From a virus: DNA of 48,868 bases. Both the position numbers and the translations under genes were made by a program. Shown in pieces: positions 6,457 to 48,868 of this stretch. The stretch lies in UHGV virus genome UHGV-0171424. One strand, given 5' to 3'. Each line of letters opens with the position of its first letter. Position 1 is the first letter of the stretch. The notes under the pieces are model-generated. The model made no database searches. It saw only the letters and a list, made by a program, of their open reading frames with translations, and was not told the origin of the DNA.

Positions 6457-6465
6457 AGGTTGACG

Positions 6466-6627
6466 GGATGGTCAATCCCTCCGCAGGTAGTGAACGACCG
6501 CAATTTGAAGAAACACACCGACAGCGCAAAGAAGTGCGAGCCATCCTGTAGCGGGAATTTTGTCAAACCATGTGCAGATAAGCCCCAAATACAAACCCGC
6601 GATACACCCATCTAAAAATAAAATCCA
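6466..6627 (-). CDS. small hydrophobic membrane protein (53 aa, 2 predicted TMDs)
   Basis: ORF found by hand, MNKWILFLDGCIAGLYLGLICTWF...; differs in frame from the track ORF 6414-6611. Confidence 0.3.
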
Positions 6628-18377: not shown

Positions 18378-18431
18378 TTTATCGCCCTTGTATGTTAGGA
18401 TTAAGCCTAATTGTACAGCAGGTGTTACCAA

Positions 18432-18992
18432 ATGAAAAATCCTTTAAGTAAACAAATGACCGCCCTTCTCACCGCATTTGCAATGGGTGGTACGGGTACT
18501 GCGGTAGTCACGCAGACGGACATCCTCAATCAGTTCCTGAACGAGAAGGAAGGGAACAGGCTGACGGCATATCTGGACAGTGCAAATCCTCCCATCTGGA
18601 CCATCTGCCGGGGTGTGACGCGCATCGATGGTAGGCCGGTGACAAAGGGTATGCGGCTTACTGAAAAGCAATGCGACCTTCTGAACGACAAAGAAGCGCA
18701 AAAGTCGCTCAAATGGGTACGTGACAATATCCCGGTAAAACTAAACCCGGTACAACAGGTTGGCATTGCATCGTTCTGCCCGTACAACATTGGTCCCACC
18801 AAATGTAAGGGGTCGACATTCTTCAAATTGCTGCAAAAAGGCGACTGGAAGAACGCGTGCAAACAGATTCCTCGTTGGGTGTTTGATGGTGGTCGTGACT
18901 GCCGCATTAAAAGTAACAACTGTTCCGGGCAGCCGATTCGCCGGGAGCAGGAAGAGTATTTGTGCCTGTATACACTGGGGGAATCGAAATGA
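18432..18992 (+). CDS. SAR endolysin (T4-type GH24 lysozyme with N-terminal signal-anchor-release domain)
   Basis: catalytic E-x8-D-x5-T motif EGNRLTAYLDSANPPIWTICRG; N-terminal Gly/Ala-rich weakly hydrophobic segment ALLTAFAMGGTGTAVV. Confidence 0.75.
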   Translation: MKNPLSKQMTALLTAFAMGGTGTAVVTQTDILNQFLNEKEGNRLTAYLDSANPPIWTICRGVTRIDGRPVTKGMRLTEKQCDLLNDKEAQKSLKWVRDNIPVKLNPVQQVGIASFCPYNIGPTKCKGSTFFKLLQKGDWKNACKQIPRWVFDGGRDCRIKSNNCSGQPIRREQEEYLCLYTLGESK

Positions 18993-19318
18993 CAATGTTA
19001 CAGCGGGTAGTAATTGTTGTGGGAATCGTATTCGTGACATGTACATATTGGCTAGGTTATTATCACGGTGAGCGGTCGGTCAAGCTGGACGATTTCAAAG
19101 AATACAAAGCAGCCGTCGAAGCCCGTGACGCGCTGCAGGAAAAACTCAATGCTTCTGATGTGGAATTGCAGAAAAAGCAACAGGAACTGGAAGAAGCCCG
19201 GGCCAGAAAAGTCGGTGAAAAAGTCATCGTCTACCGTGACCGAATCAAAGACTCCGCCACCGCTCAGTGTGTCAAAGAGAGTGGTATCCTCGACCTGTAT
19301 GATGCGACCGTAAAATGA
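18989..19318 (+). CDS. i-spanin (Rz-like: N-terminal TMD plus coiled coil)
   Basis: MTMLQRVVIVVGIVFVTC TMD then a charged helical region; RBS GGGGG; overlaps the endolysin stop. Confidence 0.6.
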   Translation: MTMLQRVVIVVGIVFVTCTYWLGYYHGERSVKLDDFKEYKAAVEARDALQEKLNASDVELQKKQQELEEARARKVGEKVIVYRDRIKDSATAQCVKESGILDLYDATVK

Positions 19319-19551
19319 AAAAACTTATCCTGCTGGTAGCAGTACTTACTTTAACCGCCTGCGCTCAGGAAGTGCGTAATTGCCCGCCTCCGTCTAACGA
19401 CCTGCTTACGCCGAGCGGTGAGTTGTGGACAACCGATGGTGACCCCGAAAAGGCCGCTACGGTAATCCCACATAACGGGGAAGTTCTGATGGCCGACCGG
19501 GACAGAGTGTCCCGGTGGCAAAACTGGTGGGAAGGTTGTAAAATCTTATGA
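19315..19551 (+). CDS. o-spanin (Rz1-like outer-membrane lipoprotein, separate gene)
   Basis: lipobox LTLTAC, Pro-rich mature part, ATGA overlap with the i-spanin. Confidence 0.6.
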   Translation: MKKLILLVAVLTLTACAQEVRNCPPPSNDLLTPSGELWTTDGDPEKAATVIPHNGEVLMADRDRVSRWQNWWEGCKIL

Positions 19552-26239: not shown

Positions 26240-26888
26240 ACAAATCCAAAAGTGTCGTAACCTGGCTGGCAACATTCGTTGCGGCTGTCTTCACATTGAT
26301 GTAACCACGCTCAATCAGTCCGGATATGGATGTGCTGGAAACGTCGTTACTGTTCAACTGATACTGTGCCGGTTGTGAACCGTTTGCCACGCGGTCAAGC
26401 GTGACAATCTGCTGCAGTTCAGCAACAAATATCAGTCCGTTCTCATTCTCCGGGTCTTTAGAGCGCCCGATACGCTGGATGACCATATTGTTCAGCGTGA
26501 TTTCACCCGTATCCACCGTGAATACCTGTCCGGAGTACATGAAATCGAGCAAAGTGTTCAGTGTTGTACTGGAGCGGGTTTCATTTGAGCCGCTCAACCA
26601 CCCCGCGAACAGACCAGCACCTACGGCAGTAAACGGATTGTCATCGACGAGATTTGTCAACGCCCCGGTGAAATCGGTGATACTGACTTTCAACGGGTTG
26701 TTCGATACCGCACCCGTCATCGTGTAACGAATAGGCTGATAGATAATGTGGTCCGCAATTGGTGCACCTGTCTCAATGGGGTATTGCACGATGTCCACAC
26801 TGGCATCAAGGTCATCAGACAGGACAGCATCGAACTGAAGCGACCCAAGCTGTGGGCCGCGCTTTACCAGAAGGTTAATTAAACTCAT
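26238..26888 (-). CDS. baseplate protein (Mu gp44/P-like, putative)
   Basis: 216 aa; conserved position between the N-like gene and the spike gene. Confidence 0.45.
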   Translation of the reverse strand: MSLINLLVKRGPQLGSLQFDAVLSDDLDASVDIVQYPIETGAPIADHIIYQPIRYTMTGAVSNNPLKVSITDFTGALTNLVDDNPFTAVGAGLFAGWLSGSNETRSSTTLNTLLDFMYSGQVFTVDTGEITLNNMVIQRIGRSKDPENENGLIFVAELQQIVTLDRVANGSQPAQYQLNSNDVSSTSISGLIERGYINVKTAATNVASQVTTLLDL

Positions 26889-28309
26889 AACATGTATGCC
26901 TTACCTTGTCTGAATCGTTCCTCAACACGTCGCCACACGTCACCGACAGTAATATAACCTTTATGGTCCGTGTCAAGCCCTGCGTTCTGATTGTACGCTG
27001 TAGAAGGTGATGAGTACATCACGGTTGTGGAAGGTTTACCGATGAATGCCGGACTGAATACAGCCATGTACACGTCGCCCATTGTTTTGTAACGCCCTTT
27101 GTACTGATTAAAATAATCAGTAATCGGACCTCTCACCTGTTCAGCTGCAGTCATTGACAGGATGACATTTTTATTGCGTCCGTATTTAGTCTGAAACGCA
27201 CTTGTCCACCCGGCGTTAGTAAACTGAATCAGTCCTACCGCGCCGGATTTGCTGTTCTTTGACTGTGGATTGAAGTTAGACTCTGCAGATATTACAGCCA
27301 TAATCCAGTTGGGACTGATACCCAGACTTTGCCCAAGTTTACGCACCTCGGTACGGAAATCCTGCTGCTGACTGGCATCCTCACCCTGCACGCCAACACG
27401 CCCGTAAATAAGACGATTACCAACATCACTATTTGTCGTGGTGGTATCCATTGACCCGGCGCGCACAGCTTTGACAAATGTGTACCAGTCAGGGCCATGT
27501 GTGTCTCCAGTATGCTGAATGGTCTGAACGTTCCAGTCACCTTCCAGTTTAGCGTCGACGGTTGTCTGGAACTCCACCGCCCCAAAATCAAATTTAGGCC
27601 ATTTTGATTCAATATTAAGCACCGATGCGGGTGTCATACGGGGGTCAAGACGCATTTTAACGTCACAGAATACGCCATCAATGCCGCCGTGAAGCGTGGG
27701 CGCATCAATCATCCCGGTGGCGGAACTGATTTTGATGGGGGTGGCTTTACGGTCATCAGACGGAAATCCGACAAACACTTGACCAGCGTACAGATGCCAT
27801 TCAAAGCCGTATGCCTTAGCCAGAATGTCAAGTTCCTTGCTGATATCGGAGCTAACGTTATAGCCGCCAGCCATGACAATAGAGGTAAATTTGTCCTCAC
27901 CATTGACAAGATATAACGGTTTAGACCAGTCCTGTGCGAGACTGGTCAAGACGTCAAACAATGTCACGCCCTTACCGAAACTTGCACTTGTTGTCCCACC
28001 GTCGAGCACGTTGCTACCGCTGCGACACGTCACACGGGTGATAATGTCGGTACCGTCACGAATAGTGAAAACGTTGGTGACAAACCCGGTAAAAATCTGA
28101 CCGATACGCGACTGATACCCAGCGCGAAAAACAACGGTCTGATTCGGTTCAATCTTCGTTGTCGGTGCAAGATTCCACAAGCGAAATTCACAGGTGCTCA
28201 AACTGTCGCCGGTATATGTTGTCACATCGAACGAGCACCGGAGCATCGGGTACGACTGTGTAATGAAATTCCTTGTGTCAATGAGTATTTCATACTGGCG
28301 CAAATCCAT
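26885..28309 (-). CDS. tail protein (Mu N / P2 gpD-like) with C-terminal lytic transglycosylase (SLT) domain
   Basis: 474 aa; SLT motifs AVISAESNFNPQS and GAVGLIQFT; follows the tape measure gene. Confidence 0.6.
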   Translation of the reverse strand: MDLRQYEILIDTRNFITQSYPMLRCSFDVTTYTGDSLSTCEFRLWNLAPTTKIEPNQTVVFRAGYQSRIGQIFTGFVTNVFTIRDGTDIITRVTCRSGSNVLDGGTTSASFGKGVTLFDVLTSLAQDWSKPLYLVNGEDKFTSIVMAGGYNVSSDISKELDILAKAYGFEWHLYAGQVFVGFPSDDRKATPIKISSATGMIDAPTLHGGIDGVFCDVKMRLDPRMTPASVLNIESKWPKFDFGAVEFQTTVDAKLEGDWNVQTIQHTGDTHGPDWYTFVKAVRAGSMDTTTTNSDVGNRLIYGRVGVQGEDASQQQDFRTEVRKLGQSLGISPNWIMAVISAESNFNPQSKNSKSGAVGLIQFTNAGWTSAFQTKYGRNKNVILSMTAAEQVRGPITDYFNQYKGRYKTMGDVYMAVFSPAFIGKPSTTVMYSSPSTAYNQNAGLDTDHKGYITVGDVWRRVEERFRQGKAYML

Positions 28310-30620: not shown

Positions 30621-30680
30621 TGTTATTTCTCCGGTTGTTAGTCGTTACAGTGTACACTTGACGAAATCATCAATCAATTG

Positions 30681-30709
30681 TTGACGGTGGCGTCAAGGTG
30701 GGTTATAGT
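30681..30709 (+). promoter_or_regulatory. palindromic promoter (TTGACG-gtgg-CGTCAA, N7, TATAGT)
   Basis: TTGACG at 30681-30686, CGTCAA at 30691-30696, TATAGT at 30704-30709. Confidence 0.6.
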
Positions 30710-30739
30710 TACCCCAACAGAACAACAGGAGAGTACAAA

Positions 30740-31024
30740 ATGATTCGTGAACAAGACCGTAAAGCATGGCGCAAATTTAAAATTCAGTTGGTAGTCATTA
30801 TGGCTGCGGCACTGTCGGCAACAATTTACTGCAACAGCGCCCACGCTGCACAGGGTAAACAATTCCAGATTTATGACGGGCAGACTGACACGATTTGCAC
30901 GTATCATGAAAACGAATTTGGTTATGCGGAAAGTGATGACCCGGCGTATATGGGTACCGGCGTTTGCTGGCGTAAAGATATGATGGATAAAGCAAACTTT
31001 CATATTCGGAGCAAAAGAAAATGA
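30740..31024 (+). CDS. small secreted/periplasmic protein (moron gene)
   Basis: RBS AGGAGAG upstream of the ATG at 30740; N-terminal signal/TMD LVVIMAAALSATIYCNSAHAAQG; 94 aa. Confidence 0.55.
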   Translation: MIREQDRKAWRKFKIQLVVIMAAALSATIYCNSAHAAQGKQFQIYDGQTDTICTYHENEFGYAESDDPAYMGTGVCWRKDMMDKANFHIRSKRK

Positions 31025-31476
31025 GAAGAGTGACAAAAGAAAATCTGAGTGTACAAATCGACCGACTGCGCAAAATAAAAGATGAGCAAGGTCAGTTATC
31101 GATGAGTAGTGAGTACACGCTTCAAGCGTATGAGATGCTCCTGGCGACGATGGAGGCCGAGCCGGATTGTAATGAGCGCCAGCTTTTCTGTTCAACCGAT
31201 ACGTCGAGGATGAAGAAGGTAATTTCTGTCTCTGCTGGGACCGAGGGTACGCCACTATATCGCCACGCGCAGCCAGCGCCGGCAGTGCAATGCCCATTCC
31301 CTTGTGGATGGGACAATTTGAACAAATTGGCTATTCGGGATGCCGCGTTCATTGCTCGTGGCTTAGTCGAAGGTGAGCCAACTACTGAGGCGCAACGTCA
31401 GGCCGCCATATCGAACAATGACCGGCTGCTGAAAGTTATTTCCGCCTGCCGCGCCGCCATGCTCAACCAGAAATAA
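31021..31476 (+). CDS. hypothetical cytoplasmic protein (moron gene)
   Basis: 151 aa; ATGA overlap with the upstream gene. Confidence 0.5.
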   Translation: MRRVTKENLSVQIDRLRKIKDEQGQLSMSSEYTLQAYEMLLATMEAEPDCNERQLFCSTDTSRMKKVISVSAGTEGTPLYRHAQPAPAVQCPFPCGWDNLNKLAIRDAAFIARGLVEGEPTTEAQRQAAISNNDRLLKVISACRAAMLNQK

Positions 31477-31479
31477 CTA

Positions 31480-31504
31480 AGGGGCCGATTGGCCCCTTTC
31501 GTTT
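31480..31504 (+). terminator. rho-independent terminator closing the moron
   Basis: AGGGGCC-gatt-GGCCCCT hairpin followed by TTCGTTT. Confidence 0.6.
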
Positions 31505-31919
31505 AGCTTGCCGGACCCTTTGTCGCAGTCCATGAATTGAACTCAAAAATCCACTGGTCATCGGTAATTGTCTGACCACCACGCCCGCGCGGACCATCGT
31601 TCACAATCACACCTTCCGCACCGACAGCAGCATCAAGCGTGCCAATCTGAGTATAGGTTAACTCGATGTTAGCCTTGCTCAGAAACAGCCCGTTGATATA
31701 CGCGGAGTCAGCTGAACCAGGGTTGAGGTTCAGCGTGACACGACGACCCGGGTTAATGCGGTCCAGACGAATAGCATTACCGCCCAGACCACGGCGCAAC
31801 GCAGTGGACGCGTCAATCGGTTCATCGGTGTACGGTGGGTCAGACTCCCCGAAATCAGAAATGATTCGGCCATTAATTGTGATGACCGTGTTACTTGTGG
31901 AAAAGTTTTCTAATGACAT
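31503..31919 (-). CDS. tail tube protein
   Basis: 138 aa, immediately downstream of the sheath-like gene. Confidence 0.5.
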   Translation of the reverse strand: MSLENFSTSNTVITINGRIISDFGESDPPYTDEPIDASTALRRGLGGNAIRLDRINPGRRVTLNLNPGSADSAYINGLFLSKANIELTYTQIGTLDAAVGAEGVIVNDGPRGRGGQTITDDQWIFEFNSWTATKGPAS

Positions 31920-31932
31920 CGGTCATTCTCCA

Positions 31933-33069
31933 TTAATAAACGTCAACGGTGACGTCACAGATGCGGATGCTGCCAGCTTTGAACACACGCATGTTAATCG
32001 GTGCAGACTTACGTGCCGCGCGGTCAGAATCGGACAGGTCGAGAATATCCGTCGCTTTGGTCAGCACTTCGAAGCCATCGGTGTACGCTTCCAGACCAGT
32101 GTCGGGGCTGGTGTAATTGCGCGGGCCGAGATAGCGGTTACGGATGTACTGTTTACCGACACGTTTGGCCGCACCAATGAGCGCTTCCTGACCAACCGGA
32201 GTCTGCGGAAGTTTGGTGGTCTGATTAACGATGGTGTTGTACAGTTCCACGCGCAGAGAGTTCACGAAGGCGTCCAAATCGACGATATCGGAAATAGACT
32301 CACCGTAGGTGCTGTGTGACCACGTCTGTAACCAGCGACCACTGTCAGCGCTACCTTGCAGGTCGAGCACACTGTAGAATGCGCAGCGTTTTGCAACCAT
32401 TGCGTTCTGTTCGGTGTCGGACAGGTCTTCAGCAGCAACACCAGGAGATTTCTTAAACTCAGTGTCAATAGTGCTGTTGTCGGCGCTGTAATTGACTGAG
32501 ACAGAATGCTTGATAAGCGCATAGGCCGCATATGGGTCAGTTGCGTGAGCCACGGTGAATGCGTGACGATAGCCCAGCGTGTTCAGCTGTGAACAGATGT
32601 CATCGCCGGCGTCCGGGTTGCGAATTTTAACCACAGCCTCACCGGTCTGGCTGTTCGGGAACATGACACTGTTCTCTTCACACCAGGATGCGATCGACAA
32701 TACGTCTGCCTCTGTTGCCAGCACGTCTTTGGTAACGAGGGTCCAGTACCAGTAATGCTTGTCAAATGCTTTGGTCAGCGTTGCTTTGATATCGACATCA
32801 TCGTCAGCGGTAGCCCACACGGTGAGTTTCGGTACCGCCGGAGTAGAGCCGAGGAATTTGGCACCGGCCTTGTACGTCTCGGTTGTGGTGGCAAAGTCAG
32901 CAGCGAGGGAAGCGGTGGAATAGTAGGTGCGCACCGTGTCTTCGGTGAAACCTACCGGGAGTTCAGAGTTTTTAGCAAACAACATCGCGGAAGCGAAGTT
33001 TGCCGTACTCAATCCCGCCGGAGAAATCCGGGTTGTAATGGGGATGATTTGTTCAATTGGAAAAGACAT
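31933..33069 (-). CDS. tail sheath-like protein (DUF3383-like)
   Basis: 378 aa; position upstream of the tube, chaperone and TMP genes as in contractile-tail modules. Confidence 0.5.
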   Translation of the reverse strand: MSFPIEQIIPITTRISPAGLSTANFASAMLFAKNSELPVGFTEDTVRTYYSTASLAADFATTTETYKAGAKFLGSTPAVPKLTVWATADDDVDIKATLTKAFDKHYWYWTLVTKDVLATEADVLSIASWCEENSVMFPNSQTGEAVVKIRNPDAGDDICSQLNTLGYRHAFTVAHATDPYAAYALIKHSVSVNYSADNSTIDTEFKKSPGVAAEDLSDTEQNAMVAKRCAFYSVLDLQGSADSGRWLQTWSHSTYGESISDIVDLDAFVNSLRVELYNTIVNQTTKLPQTPVGQEALIGAAKRVGKQYIRNRYLGPRNYTSPDTGLEAYTDGFEVLTKATDILDLSDSDRAARKSAPINMRVFKAGSIRICDVTVDVY

Positions 33070-33109
33070 TTACGAGTCCTCGTAAGTTACAGTGTGCACA
33101 CGTTGACCA

Positions 33110-34580: not shown

Positions 34581-34881
34581 CCACACACCCCGTTGAAACT
34601 CGTTCGGGGTACTTCATCGGGGTATCAAAAACTCTTTAGTTTTCAGTACTATACTACTTATTACCCCTATACCCCTATAAAATAGTAATTAGTAGTAATA
34701 GAAAGTATATAATAAATAGTATAAATGTAATATAATACATAATGTATACTTTATAAGGTTTATAAGGGGGAAGAAGGGAAGAATGTACGGGGTGTTCGGT
34801 TATGCTCGTAAACCTATGATTATGAAAGTAAATTCGCCACCCCGATATCTGTGGTATTTCGGGGTAAAATGAGGTATTGAC
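34581..34881 (+). repeat. 301-bp direct repeat copy A (AT-rich, hairpin-containing)
   Basis: identical to 48623-48868 plus 1-55; starts CCACACACCCCGTTGAAACTCGTTCGGGG and ends GGTATTGAC. Confidence 0.95.
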
Positions 34882-34936: not shown

Positions 34937-35389
34937 GTGTCATTTGCATCTTATATTTTAAAAAAAATAAATTATGTCCCTGAAGAGGAAGTGAAGTCCG
35001 ATGAGAGTCGGGCGCGCCAACGTGAACACTCTGCATCTCATGACATTCCACAAGGTGTTGTACAGACATCGCGCGGACCAATGCGAATTACAAAAAGTGG
35101 AAAAATAGATGGCCGAAGTCTGGCACGAGGGAAACCCAAAAATTGGGACCGCGTGCCACGCGGAGTGAAATCGTATGAGCACATCATCCTTCGTGACATC
35201 TTTGAAAATGCGAAACCCGGTGAGGAATTTGCATGGGACTGGAGAACGGAAGCAACATATTCGGACATTAAGTTGCGAACCGCACAGTTGACATACGCAT
35301 ACAAAATCGCGGAGATATACGAACATAAGGTCTCGCTTTCCGCAAAACCAGGGTACATGGTGATTAAATATGTGGGCAATAAAGCATGA
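34937..35389 (+). CDS. basic early protein, hypothetical
   Basis: GTG start with strong RBS AGAGAGGGG; 150 aa; first gene after the repeat A promoter. Confidence 0.5.
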   Translation: MSFASYILKKINYVPEEEVKSDESRARQREHSASHDIPQGVVQTSRGPMRITKSGKIDGRSLARGKPKNWDRVPRGVKSYEHIILRDIFENAKPGEEFAWDWRTEATYSDIKLRTAQLTYAYKIAEIYEHKVSLSAKPGYMVIKYVGNKA

Positions 35390-35918
35390 GTCCGGAACAG
35401 TTTTATTTACAACGAAAGATAAATTTATCGCGCTTAACCGCGCACAACATGGCTGGAGAGTTGAAGAAGTGAGTGAAATGAACGTTTACCTGTCACGTCC
35501 TGGTGCACGTATTCCAACGTATGCAACGTCAGGAAGCGCGTGCTTCGATGTTTATGCTGCACTCGATAAACCAGTGCTAATTCGCAACGGTGAGCCTGTA
35601 ATCATTCCCACAGGGCTTAAATTTGATATACCAGTTGGACATGCTTTGATGATTTACTCACGCAGTGGTCACGGGTTTAACAGCGATGTCCGTCTGTCAA
35701 ATTGTACCGGCGTCATTGACAGTGACTACACTGGTGAATTGATGGTCAAGTTGACGCAGGATGTTGACCATCATGAAGGTGTGTTCTGGGTTAATCACGG
35801 TGACCGGATCGCACAGGGGGTGCTGATTCCGGTCGAACAAGTGACGTTTAAGCAAATCAGTGAACCACCTCAACAGAAAACTAACCGTCAGGGTGGTTTT
35901 GGGAGTACCGGAAGTTAA
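35370..35918 (+). CDS. dut: dUTPase
   Basis: motifs SRSGHG and GVIDSDYTGEL; true start may be the internal ATG at about 35478 (MNVYLSRPG...). Confidence 0.75.
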   Translation: MWAIKHESGTVLFTTKDKFIALNRAQHGWRVEEVSEMNVYLSRPGARIPTYATSGSACFDVYAALDKPVLIRNGEPVIIPTGLKFDIPVGHALMIYSRSGHGFNSDVRLSNCTGVIDSDYTGELMVKLTQDVDHHEGVFWVNHGDRIAQGVLIPVEQVTFKQISEPPQQKTNRQGGFGSTGS

Positions 35919-43773: not shown

Positions 43774-43802
43774 TTGACGACCTCGTCAGTATGGTGTAGA
43801 GT
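43774..43802 (+). promoter_or_regulatory. palindromic promoter (TTGACG-acct-CGTCA, N8, TAGAGT)
   Basis: TTGACG at 43774-43779, CGTCA at 43784-43788, TAGAGT at 43797-43802; begins 3 nt from the start codon of the divergent F-like gene. Confidence 0.55.
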
Positions 43803-43839: not shown

Positions 43840-44697
43840 ATGACATTACTTGAACTATTACGCCAGGAATTACCAAAACGTGGCGGTTGGCCGAAGGGTG
43901 CAGTAAAAGCTACCTCTTACGGTTTCATCCCGGGTGTTCATTTTTGGGATGATAACGATTTCGTGGTGGATTACAGCGACTTAACCACTCGCGCGTTAGG
44001 TGAAGAAAAAATCACACGCGAACAATACGAGGCAACTGGCTGGGACGGTACAGGTTTGCCGCCGGTGTCATACTTAAAATCAGTTCTAGATTATGATGAG
44101 GAAACCGGAGATTTCACGTGGAAACCTCGAATTGAAGGCGATTTTTCTACGAAATGTCAATTCGTATCTTGGTCAAACAGATTTGCAGGAAAGAAAGCTG
44201 GAACAATAGTCACCAAAAAGAGAAAATCATATCTGAAGATTAATTTAGGTGGTAAGAATTATTATGCACATCGAATAGCATACGCCATTTTGAACGATTG
44301 TTGGCCAGAAAATGAGATTGACCATATAAATGGGAATTCATTGGATAATTCAAAAACAAACTTGAGACAAGTTACAAGAAAGGAAAATTGTCGAAACGTG
44401 TCGTTAATCCCAAATTCAACTAGTGGTTATTGTGGTGTTAATTGGCATGAACCATCTGGTAAATGGCGAGCAAGAGTTAAAATCGACGGTAAAGAGAATT
44501 ATATTGGACTCTTCGACGACCCACAAGAAGCCGCAATTCGCATAAAAGCGATTAGAGACGCTGTCGGGTTCCATAAGAATCACGGTCAAGACCTCCGCTC
44601 AGAAGCGGAACGCGCGATTGATGAAATGGTTCGGCTGTCCGGAGTGTCAATTGGTGCGGCTAAGATTCTGTATGATGCGGGGTATCGGAAGGGTTAA
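43840..44697 (+). CDS. HNH homing endonuclease with AP2 DNA-binding domain
   Basis: HNH motif ENEIDHINGNSLDNSKTNLRQVTRKEN; AP2-like GYCGVNWHEPSGKWRARVKIDGKENYIGLFDDPQEAA. Confidence 0.7.
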   Translation: MTLLELLRQELPKRGGWPKGAVKATSYGFIPGVHFWDDNDFVVDYSDLTTRALGEEKITREQYEATGWDGTGLPPVSYLKSVLDYDEETGDFTWKPRIEGDFSTKCQFVSWSNRFAGKKAGTIVTKKRKSYLKINLGGKNYYAHRIAYAILNDCWPENEIDHINGNSLDNSKTNLRQVTRKENCRNVSLIPNSTSGYCGVNWHEPSGKWRARVKIDGKENYIGLFDDPQEAAIRIKAIRDAVGFHKNHGQDLRSEAERAIDEMVRLSGVSIGAAKILYDAGYRKG

Positions 44698-44756: not shown

Positions 44757-45377
44757 ATGACTAAACCAAAGCAAAAAGAAACTGAAACAGACAGCGAGTA
44801 TGCTCTTAGAATTTCAGAATGGAAAGAGATGCGAAAAGAGTACAAGAGAAAGTGGAATGAGCAGAATCGGTCACATACTTCCCAATACAACAAGAAATGG
44901 CAATCTGAGAACGTAGAAAAAGTTTCACGGTATAGAGAGGAGTATTACAAACAAAACAAACACGTCATTACTGAAAGGGTGATTGATTGGCAAAGAAAAA
45001 ATCCTGAGAAGTATGCCGATAAATCAAAAAGACATTATCTTGCCAACAAGGATAAGTTTGCAACCAGATTGGTCAAAAGAAGAGCGAACTTAATACAGGC
45101 CTCAATCGGTAAAGATGTGGAAAAAGTCTATTCGCAACTATACAGATATGCGAAGCTACTTGGCGGTAACCTCGAAGTAGACCACATCATTCCGTTGCAA
45201 GGCGTGGATGTCAGAGGGTTACATACCTCGGAAAATCTCTGTCTATTACCGAGAGAAATAAATCGTTCGAAAGGTAATAAATTTGACCAAGAAGCATACT
45301 TCTACTTCTTCAAAAGATACCCGAGATGTACCGCTTCGAGACTGTACGCGAGGTACATCTCGGGTAGATTAGGATAG
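44757..45377 (+). CDS. HNH endonuclease
   Basis: HNH motif LEVDHIIPLQGVDVRGLHTSENLCLLPREINRSKGNK; Lys-rich N-terminal region. Confidence 0.65.
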   Translation: MTKPKQKETETDSEYALRISEWKEMRKEYKRKWNEQNRSHTSQYNKKWQSENVEKVSRYREEYYKQNKHVITERVIDWQRKNPEKYADKSKRHYLANKDKFATRLVKRRANLIQASIGKDVEKVYSQLYRYAKLLGGNLEVDHIIPLQGVDVRGLHTSENLCLLPREINRSKGNKFDQEAYFYFFKRYPRCTASRLYARYISGRLG

Positions 45378-48622: not shown

Positions 48623-48868
48623 CCACACACCCCGTTGAAACTCGTTCGGGGTACTTCATCGGGGTATCAAAAACTCTTTAGTTTTCAGTACTATACTACT
48701 TATTACCCCTATACCCCTATAAAATAGTAATTAGTAGTAATAGAAAGTATATAATAAATAGTATAAATGTAATATAATACATAATGTATACTTTATAAGG
48801 TTTATAAGGGGGAAGAAGGGAAGAATGTACGGGGTGTTCGGTTATGCTCGTAAACCTATGATTATGAA
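48623..48868 (+). repeat. 301-bp direct repeat copy B (5' 246 bp; the last 55 bp are at window positions 1-55)
   Basis: identical to 34581-34826; continuity across the window end and start shows a circular or permuted representation. Confidence 0.95.

Follow-up and report, generated by a model that had tools for sequence, protein, structure and literature searches.

Why does a block of phage tail genes encoded on the minus strand contain a short transcription unit on the plus strand? The question is raised by positions 30681-31504 of the virus genome UHGV-0171424, whose 48,868 nucleotides (nt) were analysed as a whole and are called the window below. Here, a promoter, two coupled open reading frames (ORF-A and ORF-B, encoding 94 and 151 amino acids) and a hairpin terminator lie between the minus-strand genes for the tail assembly chaperone and the tail tube. 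An original prediction had described this cassette as a moron, that is, a self-contained plus-strand unit in the tail block with a palindromic promoter, a 94-residue protein with an N-terminal signal, a 151-residue cytoplasmic protein and a terminator of its own, and all of these elements were found where it had placed them (Table 1). On balance, and with a modest lean towards this view, the evidence favours a fixed accessory-gene slot of the genus Jedunavirus that resembles morons and hyperplastic regions and is located where the sheath-tube genes meet the chaperone-tape measure genes. The functions that the prediction had put forward (superinfection exclusion, host modulation or anti-defence) are plausible.

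A stretch of 1.8 kb that includes the cassette is 99.4% identical to its counterparts in RCIP0030 and RCIP0047, two phages of Klebsiella, and 90-98% identical to those in dozens of further Jedunavirus myophages, and by this similarity, the window is a Klebsiella Jedunavirus genome. The genus has been described as lytic (PMC9007800), and the sister phage 1611E-K2-1, for which 86 genes are annotated, has neither an integrase nor an immunity repressor among them. The window phage is virulent, and its genus lacks a lysogeny module.

The interval between the chaperone and tube genes was mapped in 26 loci (four GenBank phages, 21 IMG/VR contigs and the window), in which it varies from 394 to 5007 bp. 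ORF-A is present in all 26, and in the 394-bp gaps (loci L021 and L024), the promoter, ORF-A and the terminator are all that the interval contains. What follows ORF-A ranges from nothing to about 3 kb and comprises, according to Pfam assignments, at least 10 cargo families: modular proteins of the ORF-B type, which form five sequence clusters; Rha and KilAC/ANT antirepressor-like proteins, in some loci on both sides of ORF-A; a 482-residue DUF723 and restriction-endonuclease-like protein, which is a candidate homing endonuclease (five loci); an HslV-like protein; and several proteins of 41-58 residues, including a zinc ribbon and small membrane proteins. In RCIP0081 (L044 3056-3616) and BUCT_47333, a 186-residue protein occupies the same slot instead. 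Neither ORF-A nor ORF-B has a paralogue elsewhere in the window genome.

In two distant relatives, MSW-3 of Edwardsiella and CASP1 of Alcaligenes, the tube gene directly adjoins or overlaps the chaperone gene without any insert, so that the cassette is an insertion relative to these phages. It is not a recent one, because ORF-A is fixed across the genus, and swapping affects the downstream cargo alone. In vB_KsaM-C1, the chaperone of which is 53% identical, the same slot holds one unrelated opposite-strand gene, which is preceded by a near-identical promoter (TTGTTGACG-agtg-CGTCA…TAGAGT, with one arm a base shorter) and has its own hairpin terminator, rich in guanine plus cytosine (GC) and different in sequence; the expression slot is therefore older than its present contents. 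MSW-3 itself has another opposite-strand island of five small genes, located between the plug and the tail-fibre/lysozyme genes (L032 4998-6305).

The last codons (…AMLNQK) and the terminator are common to unrelated cargos and appear to mark the right-hand joint of the slot. The cargo appears to be swapped by recombination at three such joints, namely, the ORF-A/ATGA junction, a linker in ORF-B that encodes YRHAQPA, and the last codons together with the terminator, of which only the linker joint is shown directly. In comparison with 1611E-K2-1 (L001 2500-2760; window 31200-31320), ORF-B lacks 132 nt between two copies of a 21-nt direct repeat (TATCGCCACGCGCAGCCAGCG) that encodes this heptapeptide, and this repeat-bounded indel indicates that the linker-coding repeats act as recombination joints.

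Both reading frames of the cassette vary in the manner of coding sequences: the variable alignment columns at codon positions 1/2/3 of the plus frame number 23/16/58 in ORF-A and 20/19/38 in ORF-B. A 207-residue antisense ORF that overlaps both genes yields 76/53/41, which is a pattern without coding selection, and it was thus rejected as a gene and considered spurious. It should be noted that gene callers that rely on length could wrongly choose this antisense frame. The ATG of ORF-A has an AGGAG Shine-Dalgarno motif 8 nt upstream and lies at +59 from the -35 box, as in other members of the promoter family described below; the motif and this family-standard spacing favour it over a GTG start that would yield 108 residues, which was rejected. 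The start codon of ORF-B overlaps the stop codon of ORF-A as ATGA, and therefore, the two genes are taken to be translationally coupled. The GC content is 44.2% in ORF-A, 42% in the spacer upstream, 51.8% in ORF-B and 49-53% in the flanking genes, so that ORF-B does not differ from the flanks, and only ORF-A and the spacer are lower. Scans of the cassette locus for Rfam families and tRNAs gave no matches.

The promoter of the cassette (TTGACG-17-TATAGT) matches 10 of the 12 consensus positions, one of four such top scores in a scan of 12 kb, and its -35 box is one arm of a perfect palindrome, TTGACG-GTGG-CGTCAA, at 30681-30696. With up to two mismatches allowed, 16 copies of the palindrome TTGACG-N4-CGTCAA were counted in the window, where 3.4 would be expected, a number that none of 100 shuffles reached, and the extended pattern TTGACG-N4-CGTCAA-N7/8-TAnAGT has 14 matches compared with 0.49 expected; the cassette promoter is among the four perfect copies of the latter. 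At least 11 sites of the family are unidirectional, most of them with a -10 box at a distance of 17-18 bp and a start codon 59-66 nt from the -35 box, and some of them have a leader of the ACAACAGAGAGG type in common. Sites of the family precede genes for primase, helicase and exonuclease, genes of the polymerase region, a small TetR-type gene and other opposite-strand islands within the structural block. No structural gene in the window is preceded by a family copy with a properly spaced -10 box; one copy of the palindrome lies upstream of the baseplate spike gene. In 25 related loci, both 6-bp arms and the -10 box are invariant while the central four nucleotides vary freely, a pattern typical of sites that a dimeric protein recognises as well as sigma-70. 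Judged from this distribution and conservation, the cassette promoter is a native promoter/operator module of the phage, present in about 12 copies, and was not acquired with the insert. The unit is thus self-contained in having a promoter and a terminator of its own but not in having brought its promoter along. A divergent minus-strand sigma-70 promoter reading from the other arm of the palindrome was also considered and rejected, as it has no acceptable -10 box.

Because the promoter family drives replication and nucleotide-metabolism genes and other opposite-strand islands, early or middle expression of the cassette is likely, and the slot is probably transcribed by the host RNA polymerase early or in mid-infection. 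The palindrome would later probably be shut off by a dimeric phage regulator, for which a small TetR-type helix-turn-helix (HTH) protein of 106 residues is the obvious candidate; with a palindrome directly upstream of its gene, it may be an autoregulated binder of the promoter palindromes. If the slot is transcribed early and then shut off, late antisense transcription of the tail genes would not collide with it.

A second opposite-strand island in the window (34937-35918, plus strand) consists of genes for a dUTPase (PF00692) and a 150-residue protein without a family match, and its promoter, at 34877, is of the same palindromic type. Among the head-related and portal genes, and separating the two groups, two HNH endonuclease genes (43840-44697 and 44757-45377, plus strand) make up a further opposite-strand island; a palindromic promoter at 43774 precedes the first of them, and the leader of this promoter recurs before Rha-type cargo in the slot of L016, L017 and L019.

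The position between the tube and chaperone genes is the sole support for the idea that ORF-A, ORF-B or both serve as accessory factors of the virion or of tail assembly and are merely encoded on the other strand. This is very improbable: the genes are on the opposite strand and use a promoter class common to replication genes, MSW-3 and CASP1 lack the cassette and vB_KsaM-C1 has an unrelated gene in its place, ORF-B varies among loci and can be dispensed with, tail assembly takes place in the cytoplasm while ORF-A is predicted to leave it, and neither protein is similar to structural families. The search for homology to tail-assembly components that had been suggested together with the original prediction returned none for either protein (PHROGs, Pfam, NCBIfam, PDB and Foldseek).

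The slot ends with a hairpin, AAGGGGCC-GATT-GGCCCCTT at 31479-31498, followed by TTTCGTTT, which occupies the 26-nt gap between the convergent stop codons of ORF-B (31476) and the tube gene (31503) and has folding energies of -16.4 (plus strand) and -17.2 kcal/mol (minus strand). The GC-rich stem is retained in every locus whatever the cargo, while the loop varies, and L024 shows a compensatory GGGACC/GGTCCC change. A terminator scan flagged the hairpin on the minus strand, and thus, the terminator is probably bidirectional; as it follows the tube stop codon on that strand, it probably also attenuates the sheath-tube transcripts. A 14-mer, GTG(T/C)ACACTGTAAC, which is invariant in nearly all related loci, has exactly two exact copies in the genome, upstream of the chaperone and sheath genes, and five copies with up to two mismatches compared with 1.5 expected. 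Given these weak statistics, it is an uncertain candidate for a late-gene signal, and as a lead only, it hints that sheath-tube and chaperone-tape measure could be separate late units with the slot at their boundary. The palindrome GTGTRYACAC was rejected as a shared late operator, for it matches the sheath site only.

ORF-B is, by sequence comparison, a mosaic of modules that also circulate in the nin regions of lambdoid prophages of Klebsiella. Its more than 540 homologues are encoded mostly on Klebsiella, Raoultella and Citrobacter chromosomes. Three blocks can be distinguished, which are an N-terminal helical leader (residues 1-48) ending in …LLATMEAEP, a variable insert or linker (residues 49-88) that is predicted to be disordered and ends in PLYRHAQPAP, and a C-module of about 60 residues (89-151; QCPFPCGWDNLNKLAIQDAA…ISACRAAML) that is nearly invariant across dozens of prophage proteins and contains three near-invariant cysteines (Cys91, Cys95 and Cys143). 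An AlphaFold2 model (predicted local distance difference test score, pLDDT, 63.1 overall) has helical hairpins at residues 6-45 (pLDDT 76-91) and 97-149, connected by a disordered joint of 45 residues. The reading frame is intact and lacks any hydrophobic segment, in line with the predicted cytoplasmic location, and the protein is probably a cytoplasmic, oligomeric helical protein of the nin-region type.

In many relatives of ORF-B, the sequence runs on into DUF551 or includes a pyrophosphohydrolase module of the DUF550 type. ORF-B stops short of either: its C-terminus (…AAMLNQK) precedes the point at which the WIPVSERMP…HWMPLP module of DUF551 (PF04448) would start, and a Pfam scan of ORF-B and its phage orthologues gave no match, DUF551 included, so that the "DUF551" label on sister genes is borrowed. 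The Ead/Ea22 signature (PF13935) did not match ORF-B at E < 0.1. The prophage relatives belong to the nin region, which has replication genes on one side and Q on the other, and one of them lies two genes away from Lar and, with a single gene in between, near a weak Ead/Ea22-like match. A segment of 223 nt (222-444 of the ORF-B gene) aligns without gaps, at 86-89% identity, with nin-region genes of Klebsiella prophages, which indicates a fairly recent exchange between the virulent phage and prophages of its host. Mosaic proteins of the nin-region or Ea22 type in lambdoid prophages are often annotated as "DUF551 domain-containing", and a block-wise mosaic architecture has been described for the Ea22 variants (PMC10834534; PMC4776307). 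ORF-B shares with proteins of this type the block-wise mosaic architecture, the helical leader, the EAEP and PLYRHAQP linkers and the C-module, with up to 89% nucleotide identity, but it has neither a DUF551 domain nor an Ead/Ea22 Pfam match and is located in the tail region of a virulent phage, not in a prophage early operon.

Among the roles considered for ORF-B, interference with the host or its prophages, or anti-defence, is the most likely one though still doubtful, and that ORF-B is a decaying remnant is improbable. The latter idea would be part of a wider explanation of equally low probability, in which the locus is a dump for recombining and selfish DNA at a tolerated operon boundary, and a non-functional ORF-B is kept by way of the conserved joints and the terminator. 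The homing-endonuclease-like genes (DUF723 with restriction-endonuclease-like sequence) in the slot of five loci would fit this explanation, as would the annotation of a sister ORF-B gene as "partial" in RefSeq, the repeat-mediated indel of 132 nt, the missing DUF551 and the predicted disorder of the middle 45 residues. However, ORF-B has an intact, translationally coupled frame, its variation is enriched at third codon positions, and its C-module with the three cysteines is nearly invariant across dozens of prophage proteins.

The cargo also bears on a further alternative, according to which the unit is mainly an anti-defence or host/prophage-interference payload, ORF-B and the other cargos being the point and ORF-A a mere anchor. 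The cargo is hypervariable and is exchanged with prophage nin regions, where relatives lie beside Lar and the weak Ead/Ea22-like match and where genes for Dam and PAPS reductase are found elsewhere in the same prophage region; moreover, the alternative cargos include Rha/KilAC antirepressor-like proteins, and the promoter is of the early type. Nevertheless, neither protein matches known anti-defence or defence families in Pfam, NCBIfam, PADLOC or PHROGs, ORF-B is truncated relative to most homologues, and ORF-A itself is under clear purifying selection and is the sole gene of the slot in some loci, so that this alternative is unlikely. The idea that the secreted protein is the partner of the second one was likewise not borne out, since ORF-A occurs alone (L021 and L024) or with unrelated cargo, and ORF-A and ORF-B are thus not a functional pair.

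ORF-A is the constant gene of the accessory-gene slot, and its sequence begins with a Sec-type signal peptide, as had been predicted, with a net charge of +4 in the n-region, a hydrophobic core of 16 residues and a predicted cleavage site AHA|AQ. The predicted mature protein has 58 residues (6.8 kDa, isoelectric point about 6), a basic tail and two invariant cysteines, Cys53 and Cys76. In the family alignment, indels occur in the signal region, but the mature part hardly changes. A lipobox (…TIYC) was considered and rejected, because Tyr is unfit at position -1 and relatives lack the Cys.

The family is tiny, with 44 clusters among 5.8 billion proteins, and a scan of 1.8 billion representatives with a profile hidden Markov model (HMM) retrieved 10 proteins. 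All 61 GenBank phage records with the ORF-A domain are Jedunavirus-like. Weak HMM matches to Cna-B/SpaA-like repeats of large Gram-positive surface proteins (E ~1e-6, summed over repeats) were set aside as likely reflecting a shared beta-hairpin motif and not homology. The distant relatives all have a canonical AxA signal peptide and paired cysteines, and most of them add a second, helical domain with a cysteine pair of its own. The 186-residue protein of RCIP0081 has a signal peptide identical to that of ORF-A and a longer, two-domain mature part, which is the form seen on plasmids and in a temperate phage. One relative is encoded between ToxN and DUF3800, immediately following the former, on a contig that is probably a Yersinia plasmid; others were found next to an AAA ATPase on a conjugative plasmid of Yersinia ruckeri, near ArdA on a plasmid-like contig of 369 kb in what looks like a leading region, and close to int in a P22/lambda-like temperate phage.

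The most economical reading of this distribution is that ORF-A is a periplasmic protein engaged in envelope-level conflict between mobile elements. It would be exported by the Sec pathway, cleaved after AHA and equipped with a disulfide in the periplasm, where it may act on the lytic transglycosylase of an incoming tail or on a component of the host envelope. Envelope-level exclusion of further DNA entry, by analogy with T4 Spackle or HK97 gp15, is the preferred but tentative proposal for its function and falls short of being probable. A bolder version has a low probability, namely, that ORF-A is the short form of an undescribed family of Sec-exported disulfide proteins of virulent and temperate phages and conjugative plasmids that block DNA entry in the periplasm, and that the slot is a dedicated capture site for prophage genes; such a block might, for instance, be directed at specialised lytic transglycosylases that belong to incoming phage tails or to conjugation machines.

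Alternatively, ORF-A could be a regulator of lysis timing, that is, a periplasmic antiholin or lysis-inhibition factor like T4 RI without a role in exclusion. In favour of this, it is small and predicted to be exported, its N-region is long and charged, it has a hydrophobic segment, and it is conserved across a genus of virulent phages and probably expressed before lysis. However, the gene lies apart from the endolysin/spanin cluster, lysis control has no place on the plasmids that encode some of its relatives, and the canonical AxA sites in all relatives favour a released periplasmic protein over a signal-arrest-release (SAR) anchor. This explanation appears improbable.

Several points weigh against the reading of the cassette as an early accessory-gene slot with an exported excluder. 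Promoter activity, timing and termination are predicted from the sequence, and a literature search found no Jedunavirus transcriptome. Cleavage of the signal peptide was judged by hand. Searches of ORF-A and ORF-B against Pfam, NCBIfam and PADLOC returned nothing, PHROGs gave "unknown function" only, and sequence and profile searches of the PDB with four queries were empty. The AlphaFold2 model of ORF-A, with a signal helix, three short strands and a helix, has a pLDDT of 59.9, and Foldseek comparison of the low-confidence ORF-A and ORF-B models with the PDB gave chance-level matches only, with nothing at E < 0.8. A mirror-tree comparison of ORF-A with the SLT domain of the tail hub protein yielded a weak correlation (Spearman r = 0.27), which was the top value of six comparisons that also covered neighbouring proteins. 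The missing C-terminal domain of most relatives and the 132-nt indel fit decay of ORF-B as readily as a function.

How does the accessory-gene slot compare with known systems? Morons have been characterized as extra DNA, placed between genes that are neighbours in related phages, with its own promoter and terminator, a differing GC content and expression from the repressed prophage to the advantage of the lysogen (PMC3594210, after Juhala et al. 2000). Here, extra DNA, promoter and terminator are found at the sequence level, and the GC content departs from that of the flanks in ORF-A but not in ORF-B. Expression from a repressed prophage does not apply, because the genus has no lysogeny module, and the promoter is of the phage's own lytic-cycle type; the moron designation thus holds for the architecture, as the adjacency of the tube and chaperone genes in MSW-3 and CASP1 illustrates, but not for the prophage-expression logic. 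The tail-operon moron of HK97, gp15, is located next to the chaperone gene and gives exclusion (PMC3594210; Juhala et al. 2000, Cumby et al. 2012). The Jedunavirus cassette resembles it in being extra tail-operon DNA beside the chaperone gene with its own promoter and terminator, in its absence from related phages and in encoding a small envelope-targeted protein, as far as the predicted signal peptide of ORF-A indicates. Yet HK97 is a temperate phage that expresses gp15 as a prophage; gp15 itself is YebO-like, resides in the inner membrane and has no similarity to ORF-A, and it is a single insert. The present slot belongs to a virulent phage, runs opposite to the tail genes, relies on the promoter family native to the phage and accepts multiple cargos.

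T4 Spackle (gp61.3), an early periplasmic protein, is an inhibitor of the lysozyme on the tails of superinfecting phage (PMC7677548, PMC7650644). The likeness comprises an early gene (here predicted) of a virulent myovirus, a precursor of about 95 residues with a Sec signal peptide, a small periplasmic product and a tail-associated peptidoglycan hydrolase, which is the gp5 lysozyme in T4 and the hub with the SLT domain here. ORF-A differs in having no sequence or profile match in the PDB and no fold match with its low-confidence model and in being predicted to be beta-rich with a disulfide, and its candidate target, the SLT hub, shows only the weak co-variation given above. By analogy, the closest counterparts are HK97 gp15 for position and envelope targeting and T4 Spackle for lifestyle, and ORF-A is homologous to neither.

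The hyperplastic regions of the T4 superfamily and the hotspots of P2-like phages have a fixed position, conserved flanks, early-type promoters, small fast-changing ORFs and homing endonucleases. The Jedunavirus slot is likewise a variable island with an early-type promoter in a virulent myovirus, but it is located in the late tail block on the opposite strand, retains one constant exported gene and shares its terminator with the tube gene.

Jedunaviruses are among the Klebsiella phages isolated most frequently for therapy. If ORF-A is a conserved early exported excluder, it would affect the combination of phages in cocktails and the outcome of superinfection. Gene exchange of a "strictly lytic" phage with resident prophages, as the 86-89% nucleotide identity suggests, would bear on safety claims and on the speed at which anti-defence or interference genes are acquired. 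The palindromic promoter module would provide a handle on the Jedunavirus transcription programme, and the slot would offer a natural, evidently tolerated insertion site for payload genes.

Table 1. Features of the cassette, its tail-block neighbourhood and related elements in the window
Feature	Position	Strand	Remarks
Promoter/operator module	30681-30709	plus	-35 TTGACG, partner arm CGTCAA 30691-30696, -10 TATAGT 30704-30709
Second, degenerate palindrome TTGACGAAATCATCAA	30658-30673		23 bp from the first; conserved in related loci
Conserved leader with ACAACAGGAGAG	30710-30739	plus	AGGAG Shine-Dalgarno motif at 30727-30731
ORF-A, 94 residues	30740-31024	plus	phrog_31975; predicted signal peptide residues 1-36 (30740-30847)
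ORF-B, 151 residues	31021-31476	plus	mosaic protein, predicted cytoplasmic
Hairpin terminator and T-tract	31479-31504		between convergent stop codons of ORF-B and tube gene
Antisense ORF, 207 residues	30674-31297	minus	considered spurious
14-mer GTGTACACTGTAAC	30644-30657	minus	23 nt upstream of chaperone start
14-mer, second exact copy	33086-33099	minus	16 nt upstream of sheath start
Tail sheath	31933-33069	minus	DUF3383, phrog_205
Tail tube	31503-31919	minus	phrog_280
Tail assembly chaperone, 124 residues	30246-30620	minus	phrog_9141; RefSeq annotation
DUF6889-like ORF, 56 residues		minus	neighbour of cassette
Pam3 gp18-like plug gene		minus	neighbour of cassette
Tape measure protein gene		minus	neighbour of cassette
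Tail hub protein	26885-28309		bears SLT domain (residues about 300-474)
Endolysin/spanin cluster	18411-19551
TetR-type HTH-only protein, 106 residues	6136-6456	minus	PF00440 (TetR_N); palindrome directly upstream at 6460-6475; candidate regulator
Palindrome family copies	3112, 5579, 6460, 7814, 10614, 10671, 13530, 17138, 25704, 30658, 30681, 34877, 41479, 42614, 43774

Two minor observations may be added. At the locus, the records MN923124.1 (Acinetobacter phage LAPP1) and NC_044940.1 (Pectobacterium phage PEAT2) share 93-95% identity with Jedunaviruses of Klebsiella, and their host labels therefore look doubtful. An exact direct repeat of 301 bp, which may have arisen by duplication, mark a recombination joint or reflect a problem of the assembly, is present at 34581-34881 and at 48623-48868 plus 1-55, the second copy wrapping around the window ends; it contains an AT-rich stretch, and both copies end within the -35 TTGAC of a promoter.

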